Shown here piece after piece: positions 12,063-35,448 of a DNA stretch of 64,000 nucleotides. A program made the position numbers and the translations under genes. Origin of the DNA: an uncultured Acidobacteriaceae bacterium (GTDB taxonomy: Bacteria > Acidobacteriota > Terriglobia > Terriglobales > Acidobacteriaceae); the NCBI GenBank assembly GCA_963703685.1, contig CAVPFI010000007.1, forward strand, positions 3,662 to 67,661, read 5' to 3'. Numbering within the stretch: the stretch's first letter is position 1; every line of letters begins with the position of its first letter. A model generated the notes under the pieces. The model worked only from the letters and a program-made list of their open reading frames with translations, did not search any database and was not told the origin of the DNA.

Positions 12063-12214
12063 AGTGTCCTCCTCCAATGGATGTGAAACGCAATGCTCCG
12101 CTTTTCCGTTCAATCAGAACGGAAAACGTTGTAACAAATTTGTATCGGTTTCCAGCGTGGGGTGCCACTCAACGCTTTCGCTCTGACTCAACCCCGATTC
12201 GCTCTTTCCGCATA

Positions 12215-15022: not shown

Positions 15023-15176
15023 AGATGTTTCCGAAAATGACGTGAATGTGTTTCCCGACACATCTCTAAAATGTCTTGGGAAGGGCGCGGGCTTCAGCCC
15101 TGCCATCAGATCGCGAATGATTCGGGCTTTAACCCTGAGCGCCCTGTGGTTGAAATCTAACTTCCGAAGGGAACAT

Positions 15177-16271
15177 TCAATACGCCGCCGCCATCCCCGC
15201 TGGAAAATAGCTTCGAAAGCAAAGCACGCTCTGCCCGTCATTCGTATCGACGTAAGGTAACGCCAGGAAAGAACCCCGCAGCGAGATCGCCGACAACGAC
15301 GGCTCGATCGCGCTAAATTCCTCGCGCATAAACTTCCCCCCTGAATTCGTCAGTCCTTTTTGTGCGCCGCCGCTACCTTTCGAAGTTCCCTGGACTATCC
15401 CCGTCCCAGCGCCGGAACTCCAATTGACTCCGCTCGATCCCGTCCCCGGATTCGGACTCAGCCGCGGATAATAAAAACAAACTCTCCCGCCCGACTCTGC
15501 CTCCGCCACAAACAGCGCTGACCATTCTTGAAAGAACGATCCGCCCTCTCGATCGACAAACGCCACGATCACTTGTGCCGATGCCCCCGCCGCGGGCACT
15601 CCTCCCAAAAGCGGCTGCGCCAGCACCACTGACGTAGCCGTGACTTCCGCTACTCGCCCAACATTGAACGTAACTCGCCGCACATAATTCGGATCTTGTC
15701 GCACCGCCGCCGCGCTGCTCACGTACGCTGCCGCTATTCCCGATCCCACGTACCCGGTCTGTTGCTGGTAATCGAGATCCACTGCAATCAACTCTCCCAC
15801 GCTAAACGCGCTGGCCACACCCGCGCCAAAAACTAATTGACTCGCAGTCGATCCCGGAAGCACCGCCACTCCCGCCGCTGGTGTTCCCCCTGAAGGCGCT
15901 GGCGAAGTCGTTCCTGACGCCGGGGCCAGCACGTTCATGTGCTCCGACCCACCAGCGAGTGCCATCTGCAGCTTGCCCCACTCTCGAAAATTAAATTCAA
16001 CTCGCGCTTCTTGCGGCCCGCGAACCTGAACAGCCGGCAGCATCCGCGCTCCAGATCGCACAATGTCTGTCGTCGTGTCATAGGACCGTGTGAAATTCTC
16101 GATCCATCCCAAATCCAGCCACGGTGCCGGCGGCAAGCCCAGCGGAAACACTCCGCTCAGGCCAGGATCGAAAATCGTCGGCGTTTCCGTTGTCCGGTTC
16201 ACCGGCGCAAAGTATGCCCGCATCTGCCGTGTCACTGGAACCATTGCCGCGCGTAAGGGAGAAGTGCTCAT
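15177..16271 (-). CDS. phage structural protein, tail-tube-like by position
   Basis: 364-aa ORF. ATGA overlap with the upstream gene at 16268-16271. Role is assigned by synteny only. Confidence 0.5.
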   Translation of the reverse strand: MSTSPLRAAMVPVTRQMRAYFAPVNRTTETPTIFDPGLSGVFPLGLPPAPWLDLGWIENFTRSYDTTTDIVRSGARMLPAVQVRGPQEARVEFNFREWGKLQMALAGGSEHMNVLAPASGTTSPAPSGGTPAAGVAVLPGSTASQLVFGAGVASAFSVGELIAVDLDYQQQTGYVGSGIAAAYVSSAAAVRQDPNYVRRVTFNVGRVAEVTATSVVLAQPLLGGVPAAGASAQVIVAFVDREGGSFFQEWSALFVAEAESGGRVCFYYPRLSPNPGTGSSGVNWSSGAGTGIVQGTSKGSGGAQKGLTNSGGKFMREEFSAIEPSLSAISLRGSFLALPYVDTNDGQSVLCFRSYFPAGMAAAY

Positions 16272-16837
16272 GCCAAAATCACCTCAGAAAAGAAATAAAG
16301 CGTCAGCCTCGCTTTACGCTCGACCCGCGCATCCTGAAGACTTTCAGCCGCATCGGTCACTCCGCTCCTGATGCGCTCCGGAAACGACACCTGTCCCCAA
16401 AACAATCCCCCGCCTTTGCCTTCTGTAAACGACGGTTGCCCCCAAAAGACGCTCGTGCCTAAATCTGCACTCGGTGCTTGCGTGTAATCTCGCTTCTCGG
16501 TATTCGGCGGCTGGCAAATACTAAGCAGCTCATCATCCAACTGGGCAAGCAACCTTCCTCGGTCCACCATGCTCTGAACCGAACCCAGGGTGTAGTAGGA
16601 AACAACCACGTTCAGGCTCATCACCGGCCCGTTGCCCGCGTGTCCTTCCACCACATCCGCTGCTCCCCATTCGATGTAAAACGTATTTGGCTGCGGTTCC
16701 GCCGAAGATGGTGGAAGATTCTCCACCACAACTATCGCCGGAACCGTCGCCCCATTCAGAGTCACCGTCCGCGCCGGATTCAGTGCGGCCAGCCGCTGCT
16801 GCAGCGCAAGAAAAAAACTGTCCTTCGCAAATTGCAT
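16268..16837 (-). CDS. phage neck / tail-completion-like protein
   Basis: 189-aa ORF, translationally coupled to the tube-like gene. No motif recognised. Confidence 0.5.
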   Translation of the reverse strand: MQFAKDSFFLALQQRLAALNPARTVTLNGATVPAIVVVENLPPSSAEPQPNTFYIEWGAADVVEGHAGNGPVMSLNVVVSYYTLGSVQSMVDRGRLLAQLDDELLSICQPPNTEKRDYTQAPSADLGTSVFWGQPSFTEGKGGGLFWGQVSFPERIRSGVTDAAESLQDARVERKARLTLYFFSEVILA

Positions 16838-16849
16838 ATAACCAGCTTT

Positions 16850-17075
16850 CAGTTGTCAGCCATCAGCCTTCAGCTCGACCAAGTCGAATGTTGACTATCA
16901 CGCCCCGCTACAGACTTCTAGCCCACGGCATCACGAAAAAGTAACGCCGTGAGAAATTCCAGCCGCGAAGCGGCGATAGATTACAGCCCACGGCGCAAGC
17001 CGTGGGTGGAGGCAAAGAAGTAACACCACAAGCCCCGGAGGGGCGCAAGAAACAACCTCAGACGCTAACTGACCA
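16850..17075. repeat. cluster of short palindromic host-type repeats inside the phage operon
   Basis: CAGCTTTCAGTTGTCAGCCATCAGCCTTCAGC, hairpin CCCACGGCGCAAGCCGTGGG and AAGCCCCGGAGGGGCGCAAG motifs. Confidence 0.6.
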
Positions 17076-17096
17076 ACTAATAACGACGCCACCCCC

Positions 17097-17504
17097 TCAC
17101 TCCACCGCCGTCACAACATAAAAATAAGCGGTCCCCGCAAAATTCTCCGGCACCACCTTCTCGATGTGAAACAAATCGCCGGTATAACTGAGTCCAAGCG
17201 CTGCATTGAACAAGTCTTCCGCCGTGCCCATGCCCAACCCAGGCAATTGATCCGCGATCGCCGACGCGGGCAGCGTGAACTCGATCCGCCGCCGGGGCCC
17301 AGTATTCCCCGTCTCTAACGCTCGACTCACGACCGGCGAGATCAAAACTTCCTGCACTCCCGGATCCACCAATCCCAATTGCCCCGCCGCGTCGCTCGCT
17401 GTCGCGCCTCCGGGCAATAACAGACTCACCGTATCTCCTCCCAACGCCCTCAACAACGCATCCGCCGCTCGCACCAGCGCCGACCCGCAAATTCCCCCGC
17501 CCAT
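17097..17504 (-). CDS. phage structural protein (head-tail joining region)
   Basis: The start MGGGICGS at 17504 is preceded by AAGGGGGAAATT. The longer track ORF begins inside a Family-F repeat. Confidence 0.5.
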   Translation of the reverse strand: MGGGICGSALVRAADALLRALGGDTVSLLLPGGATASDAAGQLGLVDPGVQEVLISPVVSRALETGNTGPRRRIEFTLPASAIADQLPGLGMGTAEDLFNAALGLSYTGDLFHIEKVVPENFAGTAYFYVVTAVE

Positions 17505-17564
17505 AATTTCCCCCTTGTGTGGCGCGGGCACTCCTGCCCGCGAGAACCAATCACGACCTCTTTG

Positions 17565-18191
17565 CTAGGAACCCTTCCGCGACACGTACGGCTCCAATAA
17601 ACTGCGGACCGTGTCATCCAGCAGCGTGTCGCCAAAATAGTCCAGCCTCATCCGGTCTAACTTCCCCGACTTCACGTTCAGCCCCGGAGTCACCTGCGCA
17701 TTCTTCACCACCTGCGCGCACGCCACCTTCACACCCGCAGGAATCGTTGCCAGCCCCGCGTTGTAGACCACGTCCACTTCATTGAAGAACAACCCCATCG
17801 CGTTCACCGGAAACGTCAACTCTCCGCTGGCCGCCCAAATATCAATCGTCGTCGGATCAATCGTGGTCCACGATCCCGGCAATGCAAACACCAGCGCAAA
17901 CTCCAAACTCATTTCCGGATACGGCCATTCCCCACGCCGTGGAATTCCGTACCGCCCCTGTAGTGTCACAATCGGCGTCGTAGCCGGCGCCACCGCCACC
18001 AGAGGCAAATAGCTGACCCGCACCGTATTCAACTCTGGCGGCATCTTCAACCGCTCTTCGTACTGATTCACTCCCAGCGTGGCCCGCCGGCAGTGTGCGT
18101 CAATAATCGCTGACGCCGCCGTCACCCACGATGGGTCCGTCGCCGCATCCAGCCCGTAAGTCAAATATTCCGTCGTATCCAGATAGTTCAT
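17565..18191 (-). CDS. phage head-completion / connector-like protein
   Basis: 208-aa ORF immediately downstream of the capsid gene. Assigned by synteny only. Confidence 0.5.
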   Translation of the reverse strand: MNYLDTTEYLTYGLDAATDPSWVTAASAIIDAHCRRATLGVNQYEERLKMPPELNTVRVSYLPLVAVAPATTPIVTLQGRYGIPRRGEWPYPEMSLEFALVFALPGSWTTIDPTTIDIWAASGELTFPVNAMGLFFNEVDVVYNAGLATIPAGVKVACAQVVKNAQVTPGLNVKSGKLDRMRLDYFGDTLLDDTVRSLLEPYVSRKGS

Positions 18192-18216
18192 AAGAGTTCT
18201 CGGTTCTCAATCGAAT

Positions 18217-18270
18217 GGTTGCCCCACCCTTGTCGCGCTTTTGCGACAGGATGGGGATTTTGACTTTCCT
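18217..18270. repeat. Family-A repeat (GGTTGCCCCACCCTTGTCGCGCTTTTGCGACAGGATGGGGATTTTGAC)
   Basis: Internal hairpin TTGTCGCG/CGCGACAA-like. Copies at 20141, 22611, 27166, 35716, 40751 and 40922. Confidence 0.75.
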
Positions 18271-18347
18271 CCCTCACCCTGCCGCGCTCGCGCATCGCAT
18301 AGTGGCGGTTTTTGCTGGCAACCGGCCACTGACAACTGGCAACTGCC

Positions 18348-19319
18348 TTACCTCTGCACCTTCACTTCGTAATGCGCAAAGTTCGCCCCCTTCACCACCG
18401 GAGCCCCAAACTTCACCACCACTTGTTGTTGTGTCAACGCGCTGGGCAGTCCGAGCTTGAACACTCGCGGATTCGGATCGGTCAGCCAGTGATACTCGAT
18501 CAGATCCTCGGTGACGATGTACGCCGGCAGCACCGCGGTTCCCGACCCAGGCGTCCCCGTATAGCCCACCGCCCACTCCGGAATCAGCGGCAGATCTCCC
18601 GCCTGCGTGCTCAACGCCTTCACCTTGAAACCCGCGGTGATTTCCACGGTATTCAACACCACGTTGAACTCCGTCTTCATCTCCCGGTCGATCAAGTCCA
18701 ACAGCACGGGATTGGCATAAATCGCCGTCGGCCGCACCTGGTACGAAGAATTCGACACCATTGATGCGATCGTGCTCTTCAGCCCATCCACAATGCTTGC
18801 TGTCGTCGCAATCGTGGTCGTGTTCCCGCCCGCCTCAATCTGCCCGATCACTCCGAAATACTGCGTCGTGGTCGGGGCGCTCAACGAGGTGTCCGTACCA
18901 TTCCACAGCGCCACATCGTGAGTGCGCATCAGTCCATCCACCGCATCCGCCAGGTCTTTCGCCTGCAAATACGCGAACTGGCTCTGCTGCGCCGTCACCT
19001 CCAGATCGAACAGGTTGTAGTTGATTTGCGACACCAGCGCCTTCAGCGGCACTGCCAGCTCAATCCGTGTTGGCGATTGCAATGTTGGAGCGATGTTGCG
19101 CGGATCCATGAAACCCTGCGCCGCAGTCGGAGACGCAATTGCCGTCTCCTCAAAAAACCGTGACGGATGCCCGGTCGCCGGCACCTGCTTGATCCGTTGT
19201 CCAAACGCTCCCCGCCGCCTCACGATGTCGAAAATCTCGGTTTGATACCGGTCAACTTCAATCGCGCCCGGCCCCAGAAAATCCGCCGCCGCCATCAAAT
19301 CCACAAATCGTCCTGCCAT
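18348..19319 (-). CDS. major capsid protein (HK97-fold type inferred)
   Basis: 323 aa from MAGRFVDLM (ATG at 19319, GGAGGAG RBS). Follows the scaffold gene. Size and composition are typical of major capsid proteins. Confidence 0.7.
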   Translation of the reverse strand: MAGRFVDLMAAADFLGPGAIEVDRYQTEIFDIVRRRGAFGQRIKQVPATGHPSRFFEETAIASPTAAQGFMDPRNIAPTLQSPTRIELAVPLKALVSQINYNLFDLEVTAQQSQFAYLQAKDLADAVDGLMRTHDVALWNGTDTSLSAPTTTQYFGVIGQIEAGGNTTTIATTASIVDGLKSTIASMVSNSSYQVRPTAIYANPVLLDLIDREMKTEFNVVLNTVEITAGFKVKALSTQAGDLPLIPEWAVGYTGTPGSGTAVLPAYIVTEDLIEYHWLTDPNPRVFKLGLPSALTQQQVVVKFGAPVVKGANFAHYEVKVQR

Positions 19320-19408
19320 GTTTTCTCCTCCATTAGTTTTTGTGCTCGAAATCAAAATCTGCTGTCAAAACTTTCTGTAATCCCAAACTGTCGTTGTCCA
19401 AAACGGGC

Positions 19409-19470
19409 TGTCATCCTGAGCGTAGGAGTTGCTTCACAAAGTGAAGCAACGCCGCAGTCGAAGGATCCCT
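19409..19470. repeat. Family-B palindromic repeat
   Basis: TGTCATCCTGAGCG, hairpin GTTGCTTCAC aaa GTGAAGCAAC, then GCAGTCGAAGGATCCCT. Confidence 0.8.
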
Positions 19471-19621
19471 TTCTGTGTTATGCAACGGCGGCCTCAAAAG
19501 AAATTCTCAAGAACGCCTTCGAATGTCCGCATAGGCTCTCCCTTTGCGCGCAAAACAAAAGGCACGACGAAAGTCGTGCCCTTGTTAAGAGCCAAAAGTA
19601 AAAGCCAGAAGCTAAAAGCCC

Positions 19622-20065
19622 CTACTCGATCATCCCCGCCCGCGCCAACTCCGCCTTCACCGCAATCCGCTGCTCCACACTCAAACTCTGCAACGTCTTA
19701 TCCAACACTCCCTTTTCAATTTTCTCGCTGCCAGTGTCCGTCCCACTCTTCGCCAGAATCGCCGAGACCATGGGCGGAAGCGTCTTCCGCACCATTCGCG
19801 CCGCCTGCGCTTTCAGATCGGTATTGGATTTCTCCAACTCGGAAACCCGTTCCTGCAATTGTCGCGCCGCCTCGACGTTCGACAATTCACGGTTCGCCGG
19901 TTCATACGATGCGTGCTCATCGACCGCCGCAACAATCCGGTCCACCTTCGCATTCAACGCATCCTGCTGCGAATCCAACCGCCCCAACACGCGATCCAAC
20001 GATTCAGCCGCACTCGCCAGCCGTTCCGCTGTCGCCATCAACTGCTGCACTATTTCATCACTCAT
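19622..20065 (-). CDS. head scaffolding-like coiled-coil protein
   Basis: 147 aa, strongly alpha-helical and charged (..LDSQQDALNAKVDRIVAAVDE..VSELEKSNTDLKAQAARM..). Located directly upstream of the capsid gene. Confidence 0.55.
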   Translation of the reverse strand: MSDEIVQQLMATAERLASAAESLDRVLGRLDSQQDALNAKVDRIVAAVDEHASYEPANRELSNVEAARQLQERVSELEKSNTDLKAQAARMVRKTLPPMVSAILAKSGTDTGSEKIEKGVLDKTLQSLSVEQRIAVKAELARAGMIE

Positions 20066-20094
20066 ACGCTTCCTTCCTCCTCTAACTCGTCGAA

Positions 20095-20220
20095 ACCTCT
20101 GTGAGCCCCTGTGCCCTCTGTGGTTAAAATGTTTCCATCTGGGTGCCCCACCCTTGTCGCGCTTTTTGCGACAGAGCCTGCCCTAAGCGAAGTCGAAGGG
20201 GTGGGGATTTTGATCCCCCG
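20095..20220. repeat. composite of a Family-C repeat and a Family-A repeat with an embedded AGCCTGCCCTAAGCGAAGTCGAAGG core
   Basis: CCTCTGTGAGCCCCTGTGCCCTCTGTGGTTAAA, then GGGTGCCCCACCCTTGTCGCGCTTTTTGCGACAG..GGGGTGGGGATTTTGATCCCC. Confidence 0.75.
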
Positions 20221-20232
20221 ACGCCCCGCGCC

Positions 20233-21021
20233 CTAGCCGCTCAACTCAATCCAAGTGTCCTGATACGCCGCCTTGTCCTTCCGCAAAATAGCCGCGCCCG
20301 TAAAAGTCACCTTCATCAATGTCCACACTTTCATTCGCGAATCCGCCACCACCACATCCGTGACTTCGAACGACATTCCCAACTCCCCCGCAGCGAGCGT
20401 ATTTGCACTGGCTCGCAAGGCAAGGGATGCAGGGGTTTCACTCGTACGTCCTCGCATAGTCATCGCCAAATTACGAATGCATTGCACCGCGGACGAAAGC
20501 GAAACTGTCAACCGAATTCCTCCGCGCTCGGTCGCCGCGTGCATCGCCAATCTTCCGCGTGTCCCATCCTTGCGCGCATTTTGCGCAAGAACCTGCCCTG
20601 AGCCCAGCCCGGCCGCATGGCCAGGCCGGATCGAGAGCGTGGGGACCTTGACTTCTTTTCTTTCACTCCGCCGACCCGACTTCTCAATCTCCCCCACGAT
20701 GTCAGGAAAATCCTTCGCGTACAGATATCCGCTAACCTCCAGATTGCGCCCGACCACATCCGCGCTCGTGATCACCCCAATCTTGCGCCGCACATCGTGC
20801 CGGTCAAACGTTGGAGCATAATCCACCGCCATCCCCAGCAACGAAGCCAACGCCGCCTCTGCAGCCCCTTTCGTCAGCACTACCCGTCGTCCGTTCGACC
20901 CCGAAGGCGCCCTCTGCGAGGGCGCATCCACCACCGTCAACACGCCCCGAAACGCCGCCCGGTTCGGATGCCCCTCCACTTCCGGCATCGCCACCGCCAT
21001 ACTCTCCAATGCAATCGTCAT
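20233..21021 (-). CDS. prohead protease/scaffold-like protein (by position), carrying an in-frame repeat insertion
   Basis: 262-aa ORF between portal and scaffold. The central stretch ..PGHAAGLGSGQVLAQNARKDGTRG.. is encoded by the repeat at 20559-20655. Protease catalytic residues could not be verified by eye. Confidence 0.5.
   Translation of the reverse strand: MTIALESMAVAMPEVEGHPNRAAFRGVLTVVDAPSQRAPSGSNGRRVVLTKGAAEAALASLLGMAVDYAPTFDRHDVRRKIGVITSADVVGRNLEVSGYLYAKDFPDIVGEIEKSGRRSERKEVKVPTLSIRPGHAAGLGSGQVLAQNARKDGTRGRLAMHAATERGGIRLTVSLSSAVQCIRNLAMTMRGRTSETPASLALRASANTLAAGELGMSFEVTDVVVADSRMKVWTLMKVTFTGAAILRKDKAAYQDTWIELSG
20559..20655. repeat. composite Family-A repeat inside the protease-like gene
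   Basis: GTGTCCCATCCTTGCGCGCATTTTGCGCAAGAACCTGCCCTGAGCC..hairpin GGCCGCATGGCC..GCGTGGGGACCTTGAC has the same architecture as 20141-20220. Confidence 0.7.
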
Positions 21022-21040
21022 GCAATCCTCATTTCTGTCC

Positions 21041-21143
21041 TGTCATCCTGAGCGAAGCAGACGAGCCGAGAAGGCTCGCCTGCGCAGTCGAAGGATCCCT
21101 ATACCCTTTCATCACACGAAGCCGGGTGGGATTTTGACTTCCC
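21041..21143. repeat. Family-B repeat followed by a Family-A 3' arm
   Basis: TGTCATCCTGAGCGAAGCAGACGAGCC gaga AGGCTCGCCTGCGCAGTCGAAGGATCCCT ... GGGTGGGATTTTGACTTCCC. Confidence 0.75.
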
Positions 21144-21161
21144 TAACTCCCCGCGACGAAC

Positions 21162-22499
21162 TCACGGCGTCCCCAACTCCGGCAACCCCCGCATCCGCCT
21201 CACCTCATTCACCGTCAGCACTCCGTTCTGCAACAGAATCTGCTGGATCTGCACCTCCTCCAGCGGATCCGTCGTATCCACATCCGCAAACACAAACTCC
21301 AGATCGTTCCATCCCAACTTCTTTGCGATCGCATCTCGCGTCAGCGACTCCGCCAGCAATCGCGCCGTCGGCACGATCGCCTGCCGAAACGCCAGGTCAT
21401 TCAATTCCTCCGCGGTGGAGCGATTCACGTCCCGCTCCACCCCGAGATAAAACGGAGGAAGGTCGAAAGCATCGGCGACAACTCGCAGCAGAAATTCCTG
21501 CCACTGCAGTCGTAAGTCTGCATCGGTGCCTCCACCGAACCTCAGTACCTCCGGTTTGCTTTCGGCCGATAGGATGGGCACCTTTCCCGTGCCCTCAATC
21601 TCGTCCTGCCACCACCGGATCAGTCGCTCGTGATGCTCCGGCGTCAAATCCTGCAACCACAGTGCATACTGCACGACGGTATTCGACGCCAGCCGCGAGG
21701 CGTACCGGTGCGCTCCCATAAAAGAATTGATCGTCTCGAACGCCACTTCCAGCCGCCCCAACCCAAACGGCGTATGGGTTCGCGGATTTAGCCGGATGTA
21801 AATCAACTCATCGTCATCCAGCTTGATCTGCGAATTCGCCCCCGATTGATCGTTCACCTGCATGTACCGTTGCGACTGCGGCGACCCATCCCACTCCAGG
21901 TTCATCCGAATCGACGCTCCATCCACCGGCCACAACACCAGCGGCAAGGTTTGTGTGGGGATAGCCGCTGGGGGCCCCATAGCTTGCCCTGAGCTTGTCG
22001 AAGGGTCTCGCCGCTTTTGCGAGACATGGGACTCTTCTCCCGACCGAGGCAAATCAGTTCGATCCCACTCCGGCCGGAGCTGCACTTCAATCGCACCAAA
22101 TCCGCCGACAATAATGTCTTCCAGCACCTGCTCCGCCAACGACCGGAACGAATCATCCGGATTCGGCGCATGAAAGTTATCCGTCAGCAGCCGCACCCGC
22201 TGCGCCCCAGCCGATATCGCCTCCAGCGCATACCCCTGCCGCGGCTGAATCCTCCACCGCATCCCCGCGATGCGATCCTTAATGCAGTTGATCGCCCGTC
22301 GTGCGATCGGTGTCTCCGAAAACCGCCGCAAGTTGTACGGAGTCGGTTTGGGCATCGCATCCGTCAGCGGCCCGTAAGAATTAAAGATCGAAGGCAGCGC
22401 CGAAGTCCGCCGCCTCTTCTCGATTTGCACTGAGGAGCTCCCCGAAGACACTCCCGCCACCCGGCGCCAGGCGCCGCGTACCGCCTCTGTAATTTTCAT
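21162..22499 (-). CDS. phage portal protein, carrying an in-frame repeat insertion
   Basis: 445-aa ORF. Size and position (after the terminase region, before protease/scaffold/capsid) fit a portal. The segment SHVSQKRRDPSTSSGQAMGPP is encoded by the repeat at 21971-22037. Confidence 0.7.
   Translation of the reverse strand: MKITEAVRGAWRRVAGVSSGSSSVQIEKRRRTSALPSIFNSYGPLTDAMPKPTPYNLRRFSETPIARRAINCIKDRIAGMRWRIQPRQGYALEAISAGAQRVRLLTDNFHAPNPDDSFRSLAEQVLEDIIVGGFGAIEVQLRPEWDRTDLPRSGEESHVSQKRRDPSTSSGQAMGPPAAIPTQTLPLVLWPVDGASIRMNLEWDGSPQSQRYMQVNDQSGANSQIKLDDDELIYIRLNPRTHTPFGLGRLEVAFETINSFMGAHRYASRLASNTVVQYALWLQDLTPEHHERLIRWWQDEIEGTGKVPILSAESKPEVLRFGGGTDADLRLQWQEFLLRVVADAFDLPPFYLGVERDVNRSTAEELNDLAFRQAIVPTARLLAESLTRDAIAKKLGWNDLEFVFADVDTTDPLEEVQIQQILLQNGVLTVNEVRRMRGLPELGTP
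21971..22037. repeat. Family-A/CCTGCCCTGAGC composite repeat inside the portal gene
   Basis: GGGGCCCCATAGCTTGCCCTGAGCTTGTCGAAGGGTCTCGCCGCTTTTGCGAGACATGGGACTCTTC. Confidence 0.7.
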
Positions 22500-22523
22500 G
22501 ATTATTTTTTCCTACCCCAACTC

Positions 22524-22665
22524 ACGTAGCGACAGCCGCCTCGGCTGTCCAAAAAGATTGTGTGGCGCGGGCACTCCTGCCCGCGAACTCTATGCATCGA
22601 TAAGTAATGCGGGTGCCCCATCCCTTGTCGCGTCGTTTGCGACAGGGTGGGGATTTTGACTCTCC
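22524..22665. repeat. three adjacent repeats: Family E (GACAGCCGCCTCGGCTGTCC), Family F (TGTGGCGCGGGCACTCCTGCCCGCGA) and Family A
   Basis: Family E copies also at 24521, 35828 and 63407. Family F copy at 17516. Family A as listed above. Confidence 0.75.
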
Positions 22666-22840
22666 CAAACTTCCTCGAAACTCTGCGCTCAGCTTTGCGC
22701 TCGTTCCACGCCAACGAGAAAGGATGCGATCCCCACTCAAAAACACTCCGCAGCATGTGAGCCTTCAGTCAACTCACTCTGTCTTATCTAAGTCACGTCA
22801 TCCTAAGGTAAACGAGGATCTCTGCGCTCGGGCAGCACAG

Positions 22841-23650
22841 TCACGCCCTCAACTCCGTCCGCGCTACCTCCGCAATCCCACTAATCTCCCCCACCCCCAC
22901 AATCCGAATCTTCTCCTCCTCCATCGCGCTCAACGCAAACTGCATAACCTCCTGCGTCCGATCCAACCCGTCATCGACCACCGCCGTCAATCGCGGAGTG
23001 GCCGCAGTCATCAGTTCCATTGCGGAAGCGATCTTCGGATATCGTGCCGCCAGCAGCACCGCAGCATCAACATTCGCCTTCAACGAAACCGCATGAAACA
23101 ACTTAATCTCGTTCCCCACTCGATACCCAAAATCAAACTTGAACGGATCCCCTGGCTTCGTGTAGGGAGCCACCGGCACCGAACTCAGAAACTTCGCCAC
23201 CCCCGCCTGCTCAAATGCATCCCGCATCGCTTCCAAAATACGCCCTCGACCGGTCGGCGCCCTGGCCGGCGAGACTTTGGCCTCATCCACGAAAATCGAG
23301 GCCAGTGTTTCGATCTCTGCAGCCGGCGTCGCCGTCACCACCTGCATCGGTGCGGAAAGCTGAATCACATTCGAAAACGAGTCCTCCATCCTTCTTAAGA
23401 GCATCGCGCGATCCTTGATTTCTCCAACCTCTGCTCGAATCTCACGCAGCAACGCCTCGATCACTTCCACGTCCGCCTGCGGATCCAGACGTTGCACCCG
23501 CTGCCAATCCTTGGCGAAACGAACATCCGCAAGCACCGATCCGTTTGCACCTGCTTCCACCATCAAAACCCCAATATTTACAAACTCCTGCCTGATCGCG
23601 TGAGGCACGTACCGCAGTAGAAAGAACTCGAGTTGCAATTGCTCACCCAT
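22841..23650 (-). CDS. DUF3037-like protein
   Basis: 269 aa. The N-terminus LEFFLLRYVPHAIRQEFVNIGVLMVE matches my recollection of the DUF3037 signature (..RF.P....EF.N.GV..). Same strand as the HipA-like kinase and 61 nt downstream of it. Confidence 0.6.
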   Translation of the reverse strand: MGEQLQLEFFLLRYVPHAIRQEFVNIGVLMVEAGANGSVLADVRFAKDWQRVQRLDPQADVEVIEALLREIRAEVGEIKDRAMLLRRMEDSFSNVIQLSAPMQVVTATPAAEIETLASIFVDEAKVSPARAPTGRGRILEAMRDAFEQAGVAKFLSSVPVAPYTKPGDPFKFDFGYRVGNEIKLFHAVSLKANVDAAVLLAARYPKIASAMELMTAATPRLTAVVDDGLDRTQEVMQFALSAMEEEKIRIVGVGEISGIAEVARTELRA

Positions 23651-23665
23651 TAAGAATTGCTTTTC

Positions 23666-23698
23666 CCCTGTGCGCCTCTGTGTCCTCTGTGATTAAAG
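23666..23698. repeat. Family-C repeat between the kinase and DUF3037 genes
   Basis: CCTGTGCGCCTCTGTGTCCTCTGTGATTAAAGT. Confidence 0.65.
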
Positions 23699-23711
23699 TC
23701 TTTGCTCTTCG

Positions 23712-24515
23712 TCAAGCCTGCTCCGCCCACCCCGGAAACGGCCTCCTCGGCGAAATCCGAAACGCCTCAATCAATTCCCGCACCGTTCCCCTTCGTTCAA
23801 TCAAAGTCCGTGCCAGTTGCTCCAACGCTTCCCACTCCCCTCCGTACCATTCCGGAGGAATCTCTCCCGCCAGCTTCCACACCAACTCCTGTTCCATATT
23901 CTCAACCCGCGACAACCAGGGCTCAAACGATCCCCACCCGCGCACGCCCTCATACACTTCATTCCGCGCATAAACTCCGCGCAGCGGATAATCCGGAAAT
24001 GTCCACTCTCCCGCGTTGAAACAATATCCCTGGTCGATAAATGACGCCGTATACTTCCTTTCCCGAAGCCGCTTCCAAAACGCCGCTTGCCGTCCATTCG
24101 CGTTCCCAGTCCATTTATCCAGCACGAGCATCCCAGAAAACGTCTCCAGATTTCTCACCATCCCCAGCATCTCCACCGGAAGATAATCCAACACCTGCCC
24201 CTCCAGCGGACTCACCACATACCGCGATCCAAATTGTAGTCCCGCCTGGCACCGAATCGTATTGTGCGCTAGTTGAATACTCAGCTCCGGCGTGTGCTCC
24301 ACCAGCCACTCGTCCACCTCCACAACTTCCGTCACCGGAACGGGAAGCCCCGCTCGCTCTGCTAACCGCGTAGCCAGCATCTCATTCGCCAGCACCCGCA
24401 AATGCTGCGGATTATTCCGAAACTTCACCACATAAAAGTTTCCATCCGAGCAGCGCATCAAATGCCCCTGCGCCCCGCCCCGCATCCGCCGCACGTGTTG
24501 TACCGCCTCTACCAA
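23712..24515 (-). CDS. HipA-like Ser/Thr kinase family protein
   Basis: 267 aa. VRRMRGGAQGHLMRCSDGNFYVVKF (Gly-rich loop plus VxK), LVLDKWTGNANGRQ (catalytic-loop-like D...N) and SFIDQGYCF (DxG). TTG start in the track. Confidence 0.6.
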   Translation of the reverse strand: MVEAVQHVRRMRGGAQGHLMRCSDGNFYVVKFRNNPQHLRVLANEMLATRLAERAGLPVPVTEVVEVDEWLVEHTPELSIQLAHNTIRCQAGLQFGSRYVVSPLEGQVLDYLPVEMLGMVRNLETFSGMLVLDKWTGNANGRQAAFWKRLRERKYTASFIDQGYCFNAGEWTFPDYPLRGVYARNEVYEGVRGWGSFEPWLSRVENMEQELVWKLAGEIPPEWYGGEWEALEQLARTLIERRGTVRELIEAFRISPRRPFPGWAEQA

Positions 24516-24863
24516 ATCATCCTACGTAGGGACAGCCGTCTCGGCTGTCCGTCAAGTGCAGCTCGACACTCTCTCCGTTCACAAAGCCCGCCATCTTACC
24601 CCAACCTCGCTGTTTTTCGCTGTGACGTATGAACATCCAATAGTGATATTTCAAGGCTGGTTGGAAATGCGCCGTCAATCCCGCCTATCATGTCGCCTGG
24701 CAATGCTTTTTGGTAAGAAGTCAGAGAACCGCGATCACGCAGTTGCGCGGTTGTTATTACACTATAATTTTTCGGGATTCACAGATCGTTGCGCGTGAAA
24801 CCAGCGCTGGACATTCCGCGCTCGGCTTTCGGAATCATTAAATCCGGGCCTCGAAGAACTTAC

Positions 24864-25079
24864 TTATGCGCTACGGCGCTCCGCATGAATAGTGTCGCGG
24901 TCTCGATTTAGGGCTTTGCTCCGAGTACGGTGGAACTCGGCAAACGACATCTTCGCCGCCGTTTCCTTAACGCCGCCCTTCGGCGGAGGCTCAGGCGAAA
25001 AGCCCTTCAGACCGAACCCCAACGCTCCAACCAATCCAAAAAATATAGCCAATATCCCCAGTACACTCGAATATTCCAT
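24864..25079 (-). CDS. small single-pass membrane protein with a basic tail
   Basis: 71 aa. MEYSSVLGILAIFFGLVGALGFGL TM segment followed by a Lys/Arg-rich C-terminus. Starts 1 nt after the stop of the upstream ORF. Confidence 0.5.
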   Translation of the reverse strand: MEYSSVLGILAIFFGLVGALGFGLKGFSPEPPPKGGVKETAAKMSFAEFHRTRSKALNRDRDTIHAERRSA

Positions 25080-25080
25080 T

Positions 25081-25425
25081 TCATCTCCTACGCTCTAGCC
25101 ATGCGCCCACGAAGAATGCACCAATACTAAGAAGCAGTGTAAGAGCCAGCCCTTTCGACTTGATCCCCTTCGGTATCAGAAAATCCAAAGGTACAAAAAT
25201 CAGGACCAACACTGCTGCTTCTCGGAGATACTCTCCCAACATCTCCCAAATCTGCTTAGGTTTGGGAGCGAACTTTTCTAACGCCGCCGTGATGTCGACT
25301 ACTGCTGGCCGAACTATTTGTTCATCAAGGTACCGGGCGAAACTGTCCAGCACCTCAACAGCTTCATCTTCGGTCATTACAGGCGCTGCCTCTAGCGAAT
25401 CCAACGTGCCCAAAGTACCTTGCAC
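25081..25425 (-). CDS. small membrane protein (soluble N-terminus plus two TM segments)
   Basis: 114 aa. C-terminal AAVLVLIFVPLDFLI and LALTLLLSIGAFFVGAWL. Lies in a segment that looks lower in GC by eye. Confidence 0.5.
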   Translation of the reverse strand: MQGTLGTLDSLEAAPVMTEDEAVEVLDSFARYLDEQIVRPAVVDITAALEKFAPKPKQIWEMLGEYLREAAVLVLIFVPLDFLIPKGIKSKGLALTLLLSIGAFFVGAWLERRR

Positions 25426-25615
25426 TTCTACACCAACGTAATTCAGACCGCTATAGGAATCTCGTGCCTGTTCGGATTCCCGTACAGGCTAACACGCATT
25501 TCAGATGCCATTTGGCCATTTTCGGATGTTTTCCTTTGTGATCGAGCGCTCCGCCGCAAATGCCTTTCTCAAAAGCCGATAATGGAACACCCAGAACTGA
25601 CACCGGAAACCCAAC

Positions 25616-27158
25616 CTACCCCACCACCAAACTCCCCACCTCCACCGTCCTCTTCCGCCCCACCCGCCCCGCATCCTCTCGCCGCACCGCCAGCGCAATC
25701 GCCATCGCCATCACGCAATCGTCATGCGCTCCCTCGGCGGCCGCTCCATGTCCATCGGCATGCCGCACAAATGTCCTAAGCTCTCCTAACAATCGCGGAC
25801 TATGAAACAACTCCGGTTTCTCGATCAGCACTGCCGCCAGGTTCTCGATCATCGCCGGCCGCGTCACCACCGACGTCAGCCATCCCTCCTGCCCGCCCTG
25901 ATGAAAAATGTTCTCGTAATGCAAATCCTTCAAATGCGCCAGCACGCCGTATCCATGATTATTCCGTTCCACCGCCACCAGCGCATTTCCATACTCGTGA
26001 CCGAGCGCCACCACTCGCCGCGCCAGTTCAAACGGAGGAAAATGCCCACGCAACTCCGCACATTGCAGCCCGATCATTCGGTCAATCACCTGCACGCACC
26101 CGTAGTCCCCCTCCGACCCGCCGCCCGACGTGTCCACTCCAATGATGTACTGTCGCTGCCCCCCCAGACTCGGCGGAAGCCACACCAACATCCTTCCATT
26201 ATCCTTGGACTCGAACGGTGGCGACGCTCGCCCCGCGGCCGCGTCAACTGCCTCCATATCAAACACGCATTCTCCCGATGCCAAAAAACAAGACACTGCG
26301 TCTTCCGCATACTCCTGGCCCGCCAGTCCCCGCAGAACCTGCCACCGCGCCCGCCGCCACGCGATCTGTTCATTACTCAGCCCATGCCGCTTCATCAATT
26401 CTTTTTCTTCATCGGTAAACGGAAGCCCGACTTTTTTTCGGAAAATCCTCTTTATAAGACGGCTCATACCACCAGGGAAAAAAGTGTTGCGTGTATCCCG
26501 TCTCCGCCGCCTTTTGCCATTCCTCGTAAAACAATCCCGCCGCCCCATTCGCCGTCGACTCCAGCACAATCTCTCCGTCTGGCACCACCGCCGCCCGCAA
26601 CGACGCCAGCGTTTCCCCGCCGCCACGCGGCCAGCGGGAGACCTCCGAGCAATGTAAATTGTGGATGGTCATCCCGCGGCCCGCATTGTCATCCGCCGTT
26701 TCCACCCGGTACTCGCTGTCGAGTTTTGGAAACACAATCTGGCGGACGTTTGAGCGCGACTTCACCAGCGCTCCTCGATGCACCCGATTGTTGGGCAGTT
26801 TTTCCCAAAATCGATGCACGATGTTAAAAATCGCCTGTGCCGATTCCTCACTGTGCGCCACCTGCACGGTCAACGTCCCCGGCCGCGTAATCGTCTGCAT
26901 GAAATACCGCGCCGCAATATAAGTCGTGATCCCCACTTGCCGTGCCTTCAACACAATGTTCCGCTTGCTGCATCGTCGCGAATACTCCTGCTGCGCCCGG
27001 TTCAACTTCAGATATCTCAATCCGCCCTTCTTGATGCGAATCTTCAGCATCTTCCGGATCAGCAGATCCCGTATCGTCTGCTCCTTCGACCAATGATCCA
27101 GAAACGGCCCGAATTGTTCCACCAACTGAAGATCAGTCCACACAATGCCATCCCTCAA
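25616..27158 (-). CDS. terL: terminase large subunit, interrupted by a frameshift in an A7 run
   Basis: The 249-aa ORF holds the ATPase half (NIVLKARQVGITTY Walker A, ESTANGAAGLFYEEW, HFFPWWYEPSY). The 336-aa ORF holds the nuclease half (IIGVDTSGGGSEGDYG.., HDDCVMAMAIAL). The frames meet at T7/A7 26432-26438; removing one A gives ..KEDFPKKVGLPFTDEEK.. Confidence 0.8.
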
Positions 27159-27165
27159 TTAATCC

Positions 27166-27275
27166 GGGTGCCTCACCCTTGTCGCGTCATTTGCGACAGG
27201 GGTGGGGTTTTGACTTTCCCCGCACCGCCTCGGGTACCCCAGGTCTCGCCGATTTTGCGAGACCTGGGAATCTCG
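27166..27275. repeat. two tandem Family-A repeats upstream of the terminase
   Basis: GGGTGCCTCACCCTTGTCGCGTCATTTGCGACAGGGGTGGGGTTTTGAC and GGGTACCCCAGGTCTCGCCGATTTTGCGAGACCTGGGAATCTCG. Confidence 0.75.
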
Positions 27276-27330
27276 TATATCCGACTCCGCCACTCTTGCC
27301 AGAAAACTTGGCACAGGACGTGAAGTATTC

Positions 27331-28005
27331 CTACTTCAACAATCCCGCCGTAGCCCACCGCGCAATCTTCCCGTGCATATGAATCTGAAGTCCCCCCGTC
27401 GCCCGGTCCAGTCCCGCATTCCCCGTCTTCGCAGTTAACGTCGCATTAAACGAAGAGACAAATTCCCTCGCCGTCAACGGCATTTGAGGCTGCCCCATCC
27501 TGGCCGCGTTCTTTGCGGCTACGGTGGGAGTCTCAGCCTTCCCACTCACCAGCGGCACGATCGCCGCCAGCGATTGCACCTCCGACAGCACGATCCCCAC
27601 CACGGCCGTCACCTTAGCCTGCGTCGCCGCATCCTGAATGTGCAGCGCCGGCAACAATCCTTGCAGACTAGCCTGCACCGCTCCTATCGCCGCCTGAATC
27701 TGATTGAGAATTCCCGGCTGCGCCGTCGCATCCGCTTTCTGATACGCCGCAATCAGCGACTGCACCAGCTGCAGATCCGCTCCCGCCTGCGTCCCCGCTT
27801 TCTGAATCGTTTCTAAATCTGCCGCTGAAACACTCTTCCCTTGCAGCGCCGCCACCAGCGTAATAATATTTGCCGCTGCCGGAATCAGCGCCGCCACAAT
27901 CTGCTCTGCCTCTCCAATCCACGCCGTCGAACATCCGCCCAGGGTAATCGTCAGGCACAACACCAGCGCCAAAGCCACTTTCACCAAAGTAAAGTTATTC
28001 TTCAT
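27331..28005 (-). CDS. lipoprotein, alpha-helical and Ala/Gln-rich, containing an in-frame Family-A repeat
   Basis: MKNNFTLVKVALALVLCLTITLGGC has a lipobox (ATG at 28005, GGAGG RBS). The peptide VAAKNAARMGQP is encoded by the repeat at 27488-27538. Confidence 0.65.
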   Translation of the reverse strand: MKNNFTLVKVALALVLCLTITLGGCSTAWIGEAEQIVAALIPAAANIITLVAALQGKSVSAADLETIQKAGTQAGADLQLVQSLIAAYQKADATAQPGILNQIQAAIGAVQASLQGLLPALHIQDAATQAKVTAVVGIVLSEVQSLAAIVPLVSGKAETPTVAAKNAARMGQPQMPLTAREFVSSFNATLTAKTGNAGLDRATGGLQIHMHGKIARWATAGLLK

Positions 28006-28162
28006 ATCGATTCCTCCATGTAATTTTTCGATCGTTCTCTTAACTCGCAAATACACTCCAGCGCCGTGACCGAAATTCAGTCACCGCCGGGACAAGCCTG
28101 AATTATTTTGGGATCGCCCTGCCGCTAAGAACTGCTAACTCTAGAGTCGTTTGTCTTGATAG

Positions 28163-28226
28163 GGCGCGGCTTGTAGCCGCGCCGTAAATCAAGAAAATGA
28201 ATGACGGCTTTAGCCGCTGAGGGAGC
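28163..28226. repeat. Family-D repeat
   Basis: GGGCGCGGCTTGTAGCCGCGCCGTAAATCAAGAAAATGAATGACGGCTTTAGCCGCTGAGGGAG, near-identical to 10037-10100. Confidence 0.75.
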
Positions 28227-31200
28227 CTAAGGCGCCAACCTCACGATGAACACATCTCCCCGCCCGTTGCCCGAACCTTGGCACGTATAAACCACGCCAT
28301 TGGAATCCGTAACCGCGTTTCCTGCGCTTCCGGAGTTGCATACAAACCAGGTTGGCGGTGTCGCCGAGCTCGTCCCCCCAACCGTGATTTTGTATACCCC
28401 ATAATTAGTTCCACCGCCGCCCGGCGCGCTGAACGGATTCACGTACTGCCCCGTGCTGTAGACCGCGCCTCCAACCCACGGGGCCCCGCACAGAGAGGAA
28501 CTTCCGCCCGCAATACTGCCCAGCGTGCAATTCCAATCCGACGAGAAAGCCAAAAACTTCCCATCCGTCGATTCCTGGCTGATGGCAAACTGCACATCCA
28601 AGAAAGCGTTGCTTCCTGTATTGAATTCGTGCGTGAAACGCCAGGGCGCGTTTTGTCCCACCGGACTGGCGCCGCTGGCCCATCTCGGAGACGTGGGCAC
28701 GCAGATCACTTCTCCTTGAAAAGGAGCGTAGGGAACCGGAGACAACGTTTCATAGTTGAAAATACTTCCGCAAACCGGAGAAGCGTCGGCGCCTCCCGGA
28801 TTGTATGCAGCACTAAGATGCGAATCATAGGCATTCGCAAATTCACACGGAGGATTCGTATAAGTGATCCCCACCGCATACGCTCTACTATCACATGGTG
28901 TTGGCTGCCAACTGATCAGCGTATCCCCCAACGTATACGGATTCGCCGACTGGTAGACATCGAGATAAGCTCCGGTGGCATATCCAAATGTGCCAACCGG
29001 ACAAGCCGATCCTCCAATGCTGTTGTCCAGGCAGCCTTGGCCATTGTCAAACAGACGACCATTGCCCATGGCGTAATGGTTGAGTCCCGCGCGGTACATG
29101 TTGATCCCGGACGACCCGGACGAGAGCAGATTGACGGCAAATACATCTCCACGGCAGTTGCCGCTGGAGCCAGTTGTGCAGGTAGCCGAACCAGTCGTTG
29201 ATCCTAGAGTGGATTGCCAGTCGGAAGTAAACAAAAACCACCGCCCGGTCTGCGACATGGCACCGATCGCCTCATCGGTGGTGAAGTCCGGATTCGCCGC
29301 GGTATTTTCGGTCGAAGCAAATCTCCATGGATTCCAAGCTCCATAGGTCGGGGTAAAGCAAAGAATCTCATTGGACCACGCCTTCGTGGTCCCCCCCGCA
29401 ACAAAGGTAGAACCGCAAAATGGCCATGAATCGTTGAGCTCATTCCAGCCGAAGTGCATGTCTAGGCCAGACTGAATCCCGCCACTTGGCAGAGCATAGG
29501 TGAGACCGGTTGGAGTCGGACACGTCCCAATCGTGCAGATGTTAATAAATTTTGGGATACCGTTCCCTGGATTGTTAACCCACTGAAGCAGTCCCTGTGT
29601 GTCGTGCCCTCCGCATTCCGCTGGCGAGATTTCACACAGAGAGAACAGGCTTCCGGTCAAAAAGGAGGCGGCGTAGTTCCACTCGAAATACGAACTGCCG
29701 GAGCAATTCGACGCCGAGGTCCAATCCAACCACCCCTGCGACCCTCCAACCTTGCCGAGTTTGGCGTTGTGAAGATAAGCAGAGCACGGCGTTCCAGAAA
29801 TCGCTCCCGTGGGTCCCCAATCTCCCGCCACTGCGTCAGTGACAGTGTTGAGCACGCGCACGCCAGAACCGACTCGATACACCGCAACATATTGCGCTCC
29901 TTGATCGCCCTGGGTTCCCGTGCCGATGTTCGTCCACGTACATGTTCCATCCGAGGTAGTCCCCGCCACCGTTTGATTCCACGGATTCGGCTCGGTTGAT
30001 CCGCTCGTGCAGTTCGAGGAAATCTGGTAGAGATAAGAACCGGAGTTATGTAAGCTGGGAAAAATGATCGAGGCGGAGATAACTCCGGTCACATAGCCGC
30101 TCGCGCTATAAGCGTTGCTGGCGGTCCAATCCGGGCCGCCGCCGAAACCAACCGCGAAGTCAGAATCGCCCTGCGTAAGACTTCCAGTCGTGGAATAGCT
30201 CACGCGAAATCCCGATCCCAAACCATTCGCGGAACTGGTGAAGTTGTAAACGGTCGTCGGGCTAGGCGGCGTACAGGTCGCGCAATTGCCGGCGAAGTTG
30301 TAGGACTCGATGGTGGACCCGCTCAAAACGTAGAGCAGATTATTCCTCGCTGGACAAACTCGGCTCCAGCCGATCACTGCTGCCCCGGTCACGAAACCAT
30401 TCGTTGAGCTCAAGGTCGTGCTATACATCCGCGGGTTCGAGGAGAAATTAAAATTCAGTGGATAGGACCAGCCTCCCGTGTTCGAGACCACGATCATCGA
30501 ATCGTCGCAACTGAAGAGATTCTCTTCGCCTGAGCCCGAGGCCGTGGTGTTGATAGTGTAGTACTGATTTGTCGGCTGGTTCGTGCTGGAATCCGTAATC
30601 CGATAAATGGTGGTACCAAAATTCGGGTCGGTAAAACTGGTTCCGGCACCCGTTAAATTCCCGCAGGCATTCAGCGATCCTGTGCAGGGGTTGGGGCCAA
30701 CCTGCGGGGGAACCGATGGCAACGTAACAGCATTCAGATCCGTACGCGCGCAGTAATTGGGCGGCCCGCAAGAAGCGAAGCTGGCAAACGGATTCCAGAC
30801 GTAGTTGTTGCCGGTGTCGCATCCATTCGATCCAATAAGGTTCGCCTGCACCCCGATCGAGACGTAGGTCATCGCGTAGCTGCCGCGGTTGTCCCGGGTA
30901 AAGAAGCCGCACCCTCCGCTGGTCAGCGCCGGATAAGAGCCCGCCGGATTCATGGCAAACGTTCCGCCCGAGCAGTTGTAGCCCGTCCCTCCACTACAGG
31001 TGGTTACCGACTGCCATCCAGTCGTGGTGTTTAAGGTCACATACTCATTCAGGGCGGAGCTGTAACAGATCTCCCAGTTCCCCGAGCCCTGCGTGCCATT
31101 GATATTGGAGTAGCTCGCGTTGTAACCGTACACATTGGTTGAGGTCGTTTGACAGAACCGTGTCCCGTCATAAGACACGCCAGCGAAGCTTTCGTAAGCC

Positions 31201-35193: not shown

Positions 35194-35211
35194 TGTGTTC
35201 CTGACTAGCCT

Positions 35212-35310
35212 TGTCATCCTGAACAGCCCTGTCATTCTGAGCGGACCTGTCATCCTGAGCGGAGCGGGACGATTCGCAAAGCGAATCGCCCCGCGCCGTC
35301 GAAGGATTCC
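35212..35310. repeat. Family-B repeat with a triplicated 5' arm
   Basis: TGTCATCCTGAAC..TGTCATTCTGAGCGG..TGTCATCCTGAGCGG, then hairpin GCGGGACGATTCGC aaa GCGAATCGCCCCGC, then GTCGAAGGATTCC. Confidence 0.8.
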
Positions 35311-35448
35311 TTCCCTGTCTGACCGACCAACGCCTCTGATAGGAATTTCCACCACGCCATCTCCTGACTCATCCAGCCCGCCAACAAAAAAGCCACCAGC
35401 ATCGCCGATGGCCTCTGTAAACCTCTGTGTCCTCTGTGGTTAAAGCTC

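Follow-up and report, generated by a model that had tools for sequence, protein, structure and literature searches.

The kinase and DUF3037 gene pair

The window analysed here is a stretch of 64,000 nucleotides from an uncultured Acidobacteriaceae bacterium (contig CAVPFI010000007.1, positions 3,662 to 67,661 of the forward strand). On its minus strand, within a prophage-like element, a gene for a HipA-like kinase is followed by a gene for a DUF3037 protein, and the pair lies between the large terminase gene (terL) and the portal gene (Table 1). A preliminary description, made from the sequence alone, had delineated both open reading frames (ORFs), and their coordinates, lengths, strand and 61-nt spacing, as well as every peptide quoted from them, are as it gave them. 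Both are real genes and not chance ORFs, because database searches found about 8000 homologues of the kinase (the best 120 at 77-94% identity) and 1842 of the DUF3037 protein. The kinase ORF begins with TTG, with an in-frame TAG two codons upstream.

The kinase-like protein

Family hidden Markov model searches, proposed as a check in the preliminary description, place both proteins above the respective Pfam cut-offs. The first protein matches HipA_2 (PF20613; E 7.7e-12, 45.4 bits, cut-off 27) and phrog_3162 of PHROG, and it falls below the cut-off of HipA_C (PF07804; 20.9 bits, cut-off 30.5), for which relatives from a second sub-lineage have precomputed matches. The AlphaFold2 (AF2) model of the protein (predicted local distance difference test score 83.9, predicted template modelling score 0.85) displays a two-lobed, protein-kinase-like fold. 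Foldseek relates this model to PDB structures of Fam20C (1e-5), CtkA (1e-4), S. oneidensis HipA (6e-4) and HipT (8e-4), and also to CotH, at template modelling (TM) scores of about 0.5. The Pfam match and the model thus both support a HipA-superfamily kinase fold, which had initially been proposed from short motifs. At the sequence level, the kinase profile has no significant match among solved structures (best HipA, E 1.4), and the same search with DS-6A, an E. coli relative discussed below, likewise returned nothing significant.

The kinase landmarks lie in three strings, VRRMRGGAQGHLMRCSDGNFYVVKF (residues 8-32), LVLDKWTGNANGRQ (residues 130-143) and FIDQGYCF (residues 159-166), the first of which contains the Gly-rich loop at residues 12-17 (GGAQ; RGGAQG). 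Across 343 relatives K31, D133, K134, W135, N138, R142, D161 and G163 are invariant and G13, G14, Q16, E45 and Q143 nearly so; we infer that G13, G14, Q16, K31, E45 and D161 are equivalent to HipA residues, among them the Gly-rich loop, the ATP-binding Lys and the Mg-binding Asp. The segment directly after D161 (residues 165-181) is strongly conserved yet has low AF2 confidence, which fits an activation or interface loop.

The protein shares the HipA-superfamily protein-kinase-like fold with the toxins of HipBA and HipBST, and like HipT and HipG-J it has no counterpart of the roughly 100-aa HipA N-subdomain. It differs from HipBA and HipBST in its genetic setting: there is neither a HipB helix-turn-helix (HTH) antitoxin nor HipS, and the candidate antitoxin is encoded downstream rather than upstream. 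As the preliminary description had noted, the ORF list and Pfam reveal no HTH ORF adjoining the kinase gene. A further difference is that the Gly-rich loop contains no conserved Ser/Thr for autophosphorylation, a Ser being found at position 17 in some relatives only.

The DUF3037 partner

The second protein, whose N-terminal region (LEFFLLRYVPHAIRQEFVNIGVLM, residues 7-30) had been recognised as DUF3037-like, does belong to this family: Pfam DUF3037 (PF11236) matches residues 11-121 with an E-value of 3.9e-19 (69.5 bits, cut-off 22.6). The AF2 model shows two domains connected by a disordered linker at residues 122-132. Comparison of the DUF3037 profile with solved structures gave only chance HAMP matches. 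The modelled C-terminal domain resembles a restriction-endonuclease-like, PD-(D/E)xK-type fold, with Foldseek matches to EndoMS/NucS (8.5e-4), XisH, BstEII, the Can2 nuclease domain and Mus81 at low TM-scores (0.27-0.37), as well as to many viral endonuclease-like proteins. In an alignment of 143 diverse members, D168 (92%), D173 (99%), Y176 (94%) and a basic residue at 183 are conserved. We considered D173, E181 and K183 as a canonical PD-(D/E)xK triad and rejected it: the triad is kept in close relatives, but E181 is not conserved family-wide. No Pfam family beyond DUF3037, DUF1829 or any other, was detected in the C-domain of 61 diverse members; a viral protein annotated as DUF1828 matches the C-domain at 9e-4. 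The two domains are about equally variable, with 51% identity in the N-domain and 57% in the C-domain.

Relationship to HipAD, DS-6 and PDC-M66

The preliminary description took the combination of these proteins for a system not yet described. This novelty has to be withdrawn: the same pairing is catalogued as the phage-defence candidate PDC-M66 (PADLOC-DB v2), as DS-6, since renamed HipAD (PMC13092281), and as a module of Retron-Sda1 (PMC12548924). According to the literature, DUF3037 proteins are strongly associated with HipA-like kinases, and their pair constitutes PDC-M66. In the Retron-Sda1 operon deletion of HipA leads to loss of defence and deletion of DUF3037 is toxic, while the pair defends alone, the reverse transcriptase and non-coding RNA being dispensable (PMC12548924). 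DS-6 has been validated experimentally, and a point mutant of its kinase loses defence (DeWeirdt et al., Science 2026, PMC13092281); AlphaFold3 predicts a complex of its A and B proteins as well as DNA binding (PMC13092281). HipAD was first found in E. coli prophages, according to Brenes & Laub (Cell Host Microbe 2025) as cited in PMC13092281. The earlier idea that the DUF3037 protein is a non-canonical partner of the kinase therefore gains support from a published anti-phage module composed of a kinase toxin and a DUF3037 antitoxin (PMC12548924, PMC13092281).

In PADLOC-DB v2.0.0, the kinase matches PDC-M66A (6e-7) and the partner matches PDC-M66B (8e-10, residues 7-87 only), with essentially no other match. 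For comparison with DS-6 we used the E. coli sequences of DS-6A (WP_000389051.1) and DS-6B (WP_000210934.1) from the DefensePredictor supplement of PMC13092281. The kinase profile aligns to DS-6A in hhalign with 97.1% probability (E 6.7e-11) over 199 columns in both lobes, and the DUF3037 profile aligns to DS-6B with 97.4% probability (E 9.7e-12) over residues 5-156, which comprise the N-domain and linker. Even DS-6 matches the PDC-M66 models only moderately (6e-15 and 3.8e-16), DS-6B spanning the full length of PDC-M66B. Judged by these alignments, the window pair, DS-6 and PDC-M66 belong to one broad family, of which the window pair is a divergent branch.

The architecture agrees with that of DS-6: a short HipA-type kinase (about 250-270 aa) comes first and a DUF3037 protein (about 270 aa) second, HipB is lacking, the pair is prophage-borne, and the kinases have the motifs DKWxxNA and [LI]ID (IDxx) in common. 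The differences are a kinase identity of about 29%, a catalytic loop that is 6-7 residues shorter in the window protein and has Asn in place of D139, a 61-nt spacer where the DS-6 genes overlap by 4 nt, and the fixed location of the window pair, in Acidobacteriota, between terL and the portal gene. The PDC-M66 models (270 and 281 positions) equal the proteins in length, and two relatives of the window kinase (L099 and L083) match PDC-M66A over nearly its full length, whereas the window proteins cover only the N-terminal third of each model. Retron-Sda1 also contains a stand-alone two-gene defence module; its kinase was compared over roughly the N-terminal 40 residues (VIAVHDVIKLGGSTKPILV...YVIKF), and these display the strand, Gly-loop and VxKF pattern of the window kinase. 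There, however, the pair lies inside a retron operon with an HTH gene upstream, and the DUF3037 C-terminus resembles a retron type III DNA-binding protein (PMC12548924). We class the pair as a divergent member, from Acidobacteriota, of the already published HipAD (DS-6 / PDC-M66) anti-phage family, and think it somewhat probable that it works as a two-gene toxin-antitoxin-like module.

Distribution, synteny and conservation

Kinase genes of this kind occur in at least 568 species-level genomes, almost all of them metagenome-assembled genomes of Terriglobia; a tblastn search for cultured phage relatives found no match for either protein in 50,697 GenBank phage records. The synteny survey covered 80 loci anchored on the kinase and 22 viral contigs anchored on the portal. 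The preliminary description had stated that DUF3037 genes tend to neighbour HipA-like kinases and suggested measuring it; of the 101 informative loci in this survey, 99 have DUF3037 as the next gene downstream of the kinase, with spacers of -6 to about 250 nt. At one locus (L077, 9262-10816) the kinase is accompanied only by a truncated, N-domain-only DUF3037 ORF located upstream in divergent orientation.

The gene order terL - kinase - DUF3037 - portal - protease - scaffold - capsid is found in 93 of the 99 kinase-holding loci, and six kinase loci, L083 and L077 among them, have no detectable element genes. In L083 the pair stands alone between mutS2 and dnaG-rpoD; that this locus might be a very divergent phage was ruled out, its flanks encoding MutS2, DnaG and RpoD. 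In 3 of the 22 portal relatives terL directly adjoins the portal gene. Comparison of L086 with L069 shows the pair cleanly missing from L086 as a 2.0-kb gap, and the DNA to either side of it is 81-82% identical. The pair is a discrete 2-kb cassette, almost fixed in one prophage-like lineage of Terriglobia. The earlier view of it as moron-like cargo holds insofar as presence and absence are this clean, but the high occupancy does not favour it, nor does the normal composition of the pair (GC 0.55-0.585, against 0.58-0.60 in neighbouring regions), nor the lack of a promoter: a scan for sigma-70 consensus sites found no minus-strand promoter-like site for the pair in 21000-27500, a region in which terminator-like sites occur at chance level only.

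The terL-portal interval is a general landing site: transposases of IS110 and IS630 and a DUF7674 gene are also found there in some relatives. A gene for a multi-pass membrane protein of 120-165 aa starts at the DUF3037 stop codon in roughly 28 relatives. These third-gene proteins fall into three unrelated families (for example L001:9683-10072, L009:11646-12071 and L014:11672-12160) and match nothing in Pfam or PADLOC.

The two proteins of the pair evolve at very different rates. Compared with the window proteins, homologues at 76 loci have a median identity of 83% for the kinase, 83% for the capsid, 80% for the adaptor, 76% for the portal, 72% for the N-terminal half of TerL and 53% for the DUF3037 protein, the most variable of them. 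In 61 of the 76 loci the kinase is the best or second-best conserved of the element genes.

The carrier element

No integrase or tRNA gene of the element was seen within the window. One end of the element adjoins the 3' end of the E2 gene, which is convergent to it and belongs to a host 2-oxoacid dehydrogenase operon (819-11694, plus strand), and the same junction recurs in each of the five related loci with a flank that extends to the end of the element (L003, L018, L049, L063 and L070). The minus-strand ORFs at 10240..11610, 9225..10106 and 8230..8892 were considered as further element genes and discarded, being shadow ORFs antisense to the host genes for E2, cytochrome c and E1-beta. The divergence of the element genes is similar to that of the host genes beside them, and several copies of the element are partly deleted or carry insertion sequences (IS). 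The element looks like an old cryptic prophage, largely vertically kept or site-specific and possibly domesticated; it is possibly a domesticated or gene transfer agent (GTA)-like, podovirus-type element of Terriglobia.

The preliminary description had placed the pair between terL and the portal gene. Both flanking genes are present, but terL is split into two frames, and two small ORFs with predicted transmembrane segments also lie between terL and the kinase. The frame split is caused by one extra nucleotide in an A7 run near 26431-26437 (minus strand CCGAAAAAAAGTCGGG), with the intact 541-aa TerL of L019, a locus of 87% DNA identity to the window, as the reference. A homopolymer sequencing error, a real inactivation and slippage are all possible explanations of the extra base. 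The small membrane ORFs are unique to the window, as neither has a tblastn match across 105 loci, and the 114-aa protein matches nothing in Pfam, PHROG or PADLOC and the 71-aa protein nothing in Pfam or PADLOC. No known defence component was recognised by PADLOC among the small membrane ORFs, the phosphatase of the element and the third-gene membrane proteins.

The 27-nt palindromes that directly precede the kinase and portal genes, exactly 2000 nt apart, were considered as the scar of an insertion. This was rejected: the palindrome also occurs at unrelated intergenic sites, including host DNA (L003, L035, L044 and L048), and most relatives have none. A second GC hairpin (TTTCGCGGGCGAGGGCGCCCGCGCCACAC), which precedes the kinase and portal genes in many relatives, is equally non-specific. 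Within the portal ORF an in-frame 32-nt unit resembling repetitive extragenic palindromic (REP) sequences (21974-22035) is associated with about 50 aa added relative to the Pfam portal model, and this unit is also found in the intergenic DNA upstream of terL (27242-27273). Such host-type repeats inside a phage operon suggest long chromosomal residence.

Elsewhere in the element, the dual-specificity phosphatase has a homologue with 70% identity on one IMG/VR contig, together with relatives of the kinase and the portal (L106/L085); the element thus carries a phosphatase along with a kinase-fold protein. Upstream of terL, the two giant ORFs are accompanied by a 508-aa beta-helix protein. The giant and beta-helix proteins vary strongly from one relative to another (30-88% identity) and presumably serve in host recognition or ejection.

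Table 1 Features of the kinase and DUF3037 locus and of its carrier element (window coordinates).
Feature	Position	Strand	Details and evidence
Kinase ORF: short HipA_2-type kinase(-like) protein, DS-6A homologue	23712..24515	-	267 aa; ORF list, Pfam, PADLOC, PHROG, AF2, hhalign
Spacer from kinase stop to DUF3037 start	23651..23711	-	61 nt
DUF3037 ORF	22841..23650	-	269 aa, ATG start; ORF list
DUF3037 domain of partner, aa 1-121	23288..23650	-	Pfam, PADLOC, hhalign; homologous to DS-6B N-domain
C-terminal alpha/beta domain of partner (predicted), aa 134-269 and stop codon	22841..23251	-	AF2, Foldseek; no Pfam family
Portal gene, HK97-type	21162..22499	-	Pfam Phage_portal PF04860, 5.3e-47
Large terminase gene terL	25616..27158	-	Two overlapping frames, 26409..27158 and 25616..26626; both halves match PHROG terminase families
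Small ORF between terL and kinase	25081..25425	-	114 aa, two predicted transmembrane segments; ORF list, transmembrane prediction
Small ORF between terL and kinase	24864..25079	-	71 aa, one predicted N-terminal transmembrane segment; ORF list, transmembrane prediction
Palindromic REP-like hairpin directly upstream of kinase start	24524..24550	-	27 nt; repeat search
Second hairpin copy directly upstream of portal start	22524..22550	-	27 nt; repeat search
REP-like palindromes in intergenic gaps of the element	20137-20220, 22608-22666, 27162-27220, 27484-27542		Two kinds, together with 22524-22550 and 24524-24550
Dual-specificity protein phosphatase gene	40278..40838	-	Pfam DSPc, 8.6e-15
Two giant ORFs upstream of terL	28227-33839 and 35894-39556	-	1870 and 1220 aa; no Pfam family
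Prophage-like element carrying the pair	approx. 11750..43000	-	Phosphatase, baseplate-like and giant proteins, terL, kinase and DUF3037 genes, portal, protease, scaffold, capsid, adaptor, tail-proximal genes

An Asn at the position essential in DS-6A

Replacement of D139 of DS-6A by Ala abolishes defence (PMC13092281), and D139 is the only experimentally tested residue of the family. In the shared motif DKWxxNA[D/N], hhalign aligns it with Asn140 of the window kinase. The preliminary description had marked a putative catalytic D/N/D set. Its members D133, N138 and D161 are invariant in the 343 relatives and show the normal spacing of a kinase catalytic loop (D133-x4-N138 ... D161); either D133 or residue 140 may occupy the position of the catalytic base. 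Asp is present at the D139-aligned position in 20 of the 343 relatives, and these Asp forms are spread over four or more separate sub-lineages.

The residue after Asn140 is Gly in 336 of the 343 relatives (residues 140-141, window 24093-24098). No other sequence deamidates to Asp spontaneously as readily as Asn-Gly, and its presence here raises the idea of a time-dependent self-activation of the kinase.

Proposed mechanism and alternative explanations

Our assignment to HipAD draws on the homology, architecture, synteny, pairing and conservation of the two genes and on the presence and absence of their cassette; toxicity, neutralisation and defence are carried over from relatives, and a target is presumed. 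Defence by the validated relatives depends on the kinase, and they become toxic when DUF3037 is lost; by homology, we infer the same logic here. The short HipA-type kinase without the HipA N-subdomain would be a growth-arresting effector, and the two-domain DUF3037 protein encoded downstream would bind and restrain it, keeping it silent for as long as DUF3037 is made. A phage cue or loss of the partner would free the kinase, which would then phosphorylate an essential host target, and the infected cell would cease to support phage growth, resulting in abortive infection or superinfection exclusion. The element would also be stabilised in an addiction-like manner, as a likely side effect or even the main benefit. 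In this favoured explanation the slow evolution of the kinase would reflect constraint by a conserved host target, and the fast-evolving DUF3037 protein is likely the sensor or DNA-binding part.

Several observations weigh against a functional HipAD-type defence module. The Pfam HipA_2 match is confined to residues 9-101 of the kinase (profile positions 6-90 of 240), in the N-lobe, and the PDC-M66A match likewise covers the N-lobe only. The C-domain of the partner cannot be aligned to DS-6B or PDC-M66B; the assignment of the DS-6B C-domain to DUF1829 is itself weak (HHpred 0.78), and the fold class may still be shared. At the D139-aligned column, 323 of the 343 relatives (94%) have Asn, and phosphotransfer activity cannot be assumed because Asn140 replaces the essential DS-6A residue. 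A defence gene expressed in a lysogen would need a promoter of its own, and none was found by the sigma-70 scan. L070 (9995-11009) has an intact kinase followed directly by the portal gene, with no DUF3037, which is unexpected for an unneutralised toxin. Finally, the module is nearly fixed and conserved like the capsid, and defence systems usually have a patchy distribution.

This near-fixation over hundreds of species would be explained if the pair were an addiction module rather than a defence system, keeping itself and the surrounding element in place because the longer-lived kinase would poison any cell from which the pair had been lost. We regard this as possible but unlikely as the main function; it is compatible with a role in defence. 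The cassette is kept in element copies without head genes (L003, L018 and L049), in the window in spite of the frameshifted terL and REP-inserted portal gene, and as stand-alone pairs that persist among housekeeping genes. The shared chromosomal site of the element, next to E2 in the window as well as in all five flank-reaching loci, and its invasion by IS110, IS630 and REP sequences indicating long residence, point the same way, as does the toxicity of the DUF3037 deletion in a relative (PMC12548924). Addiction sits poorly with the clean loss of the whole cassette in L086, L087 and L089 and with the orphan kinase of L070. In addition, chromosomal toxin-antitoxin modules are generally poor stabilisers.

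Alternatively, the kinase may no longer be a toxin and may have been co-opted by the element, together with DUF3037, as a pseudokinase or regulator, either an ATP-binding switch or a weak or atypical enzyme. Such a protein could take part in the control of late gene expression, packaging, particle release or host physiology, and it may oppose the dual-specificity phosphatase encoded in the element. The prevalence of Asn at the D139 position alongside invariant ATP-binding residues agrees with this, as do the catalytic-region half of the kinase falling outside the HipA_2 and PDC-M66A matches, the high conservation rank of the kinase, the tolerance of an orphan kinase in L070, the presence of the phosphatase in the element here and in an IMG/VR relative, and the fixed site of the pair in a structural operon with normal composition and no promoter found for it. 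We nevertheless consider co-option quite improbable: elements of the same kind work, or are at least found, where the cassette is missing, and the pair is also found outside any phage context. The invariant D133-x4-N138 and D161 with their normal kinase spacing mean that the enzyme may be fully active, and toggling between Asn and Asp indicates that both states are acceptable and not that activity was lost. Very unlikely, in our judgement, is a swap of roles, in which the DUF3037 protein would be the effector through its restriction-endonuclease-like C-domain and the kinase-like protein would sense or regulate. The fold matches to PD-(D/E)xK nucleases and the conservation of D168, D173, Y176 and the basic residue at 183 are in keeping with such a swap, but position 181, where the canonical (D/E)xK motif has its acidic residue, is not conserved, the Foldseek TM-scores are low, and the tested relatives need the kinase and are made toxic, not detoxified, by deletion of DUF3037 (PMC12548924, PMC13092281).

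The acidobacterial branch may also have repurposed a HipAD toxin, a speculative scenario that we put forward with considerable reserve. Its kinase, made with Asn in place of the catalytic Asp and nearly always with Gly next to it, would then be a non-toxic, ATP-binding pseudokinase or a slow, self-arming enzyme, and with its nuclease-fold DUF3037 partner it would form a core, vertically inherited part of a domesticated, GTA-like or cryptic podovirus-like element residing at one chromosomal site in hundreds of Terriglobia species.

Implications

With this pair, HipAD-type modules reach far beyond Enterobacteria and into a very abundant soil phylum, with one sub-family in at least 568 species genomes. 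A near-fixed and highly conserved passenger of a single prophage-like lineage is unusual for defence genes, and this near-fixation bears on how toxin-antitoxin modules stabilise cryptic prophages. The contrast between a slowly evolving kinase and a fast-evolving partner points to DUF3037 as the sensing component. Should the repurposing scenario prove true, the module would regulate or stabilise the element rather than simply abort infections. The natural Asn/Asp polymorphism at the position essential in DS-6A provides a ready-made test of the role of this residue.

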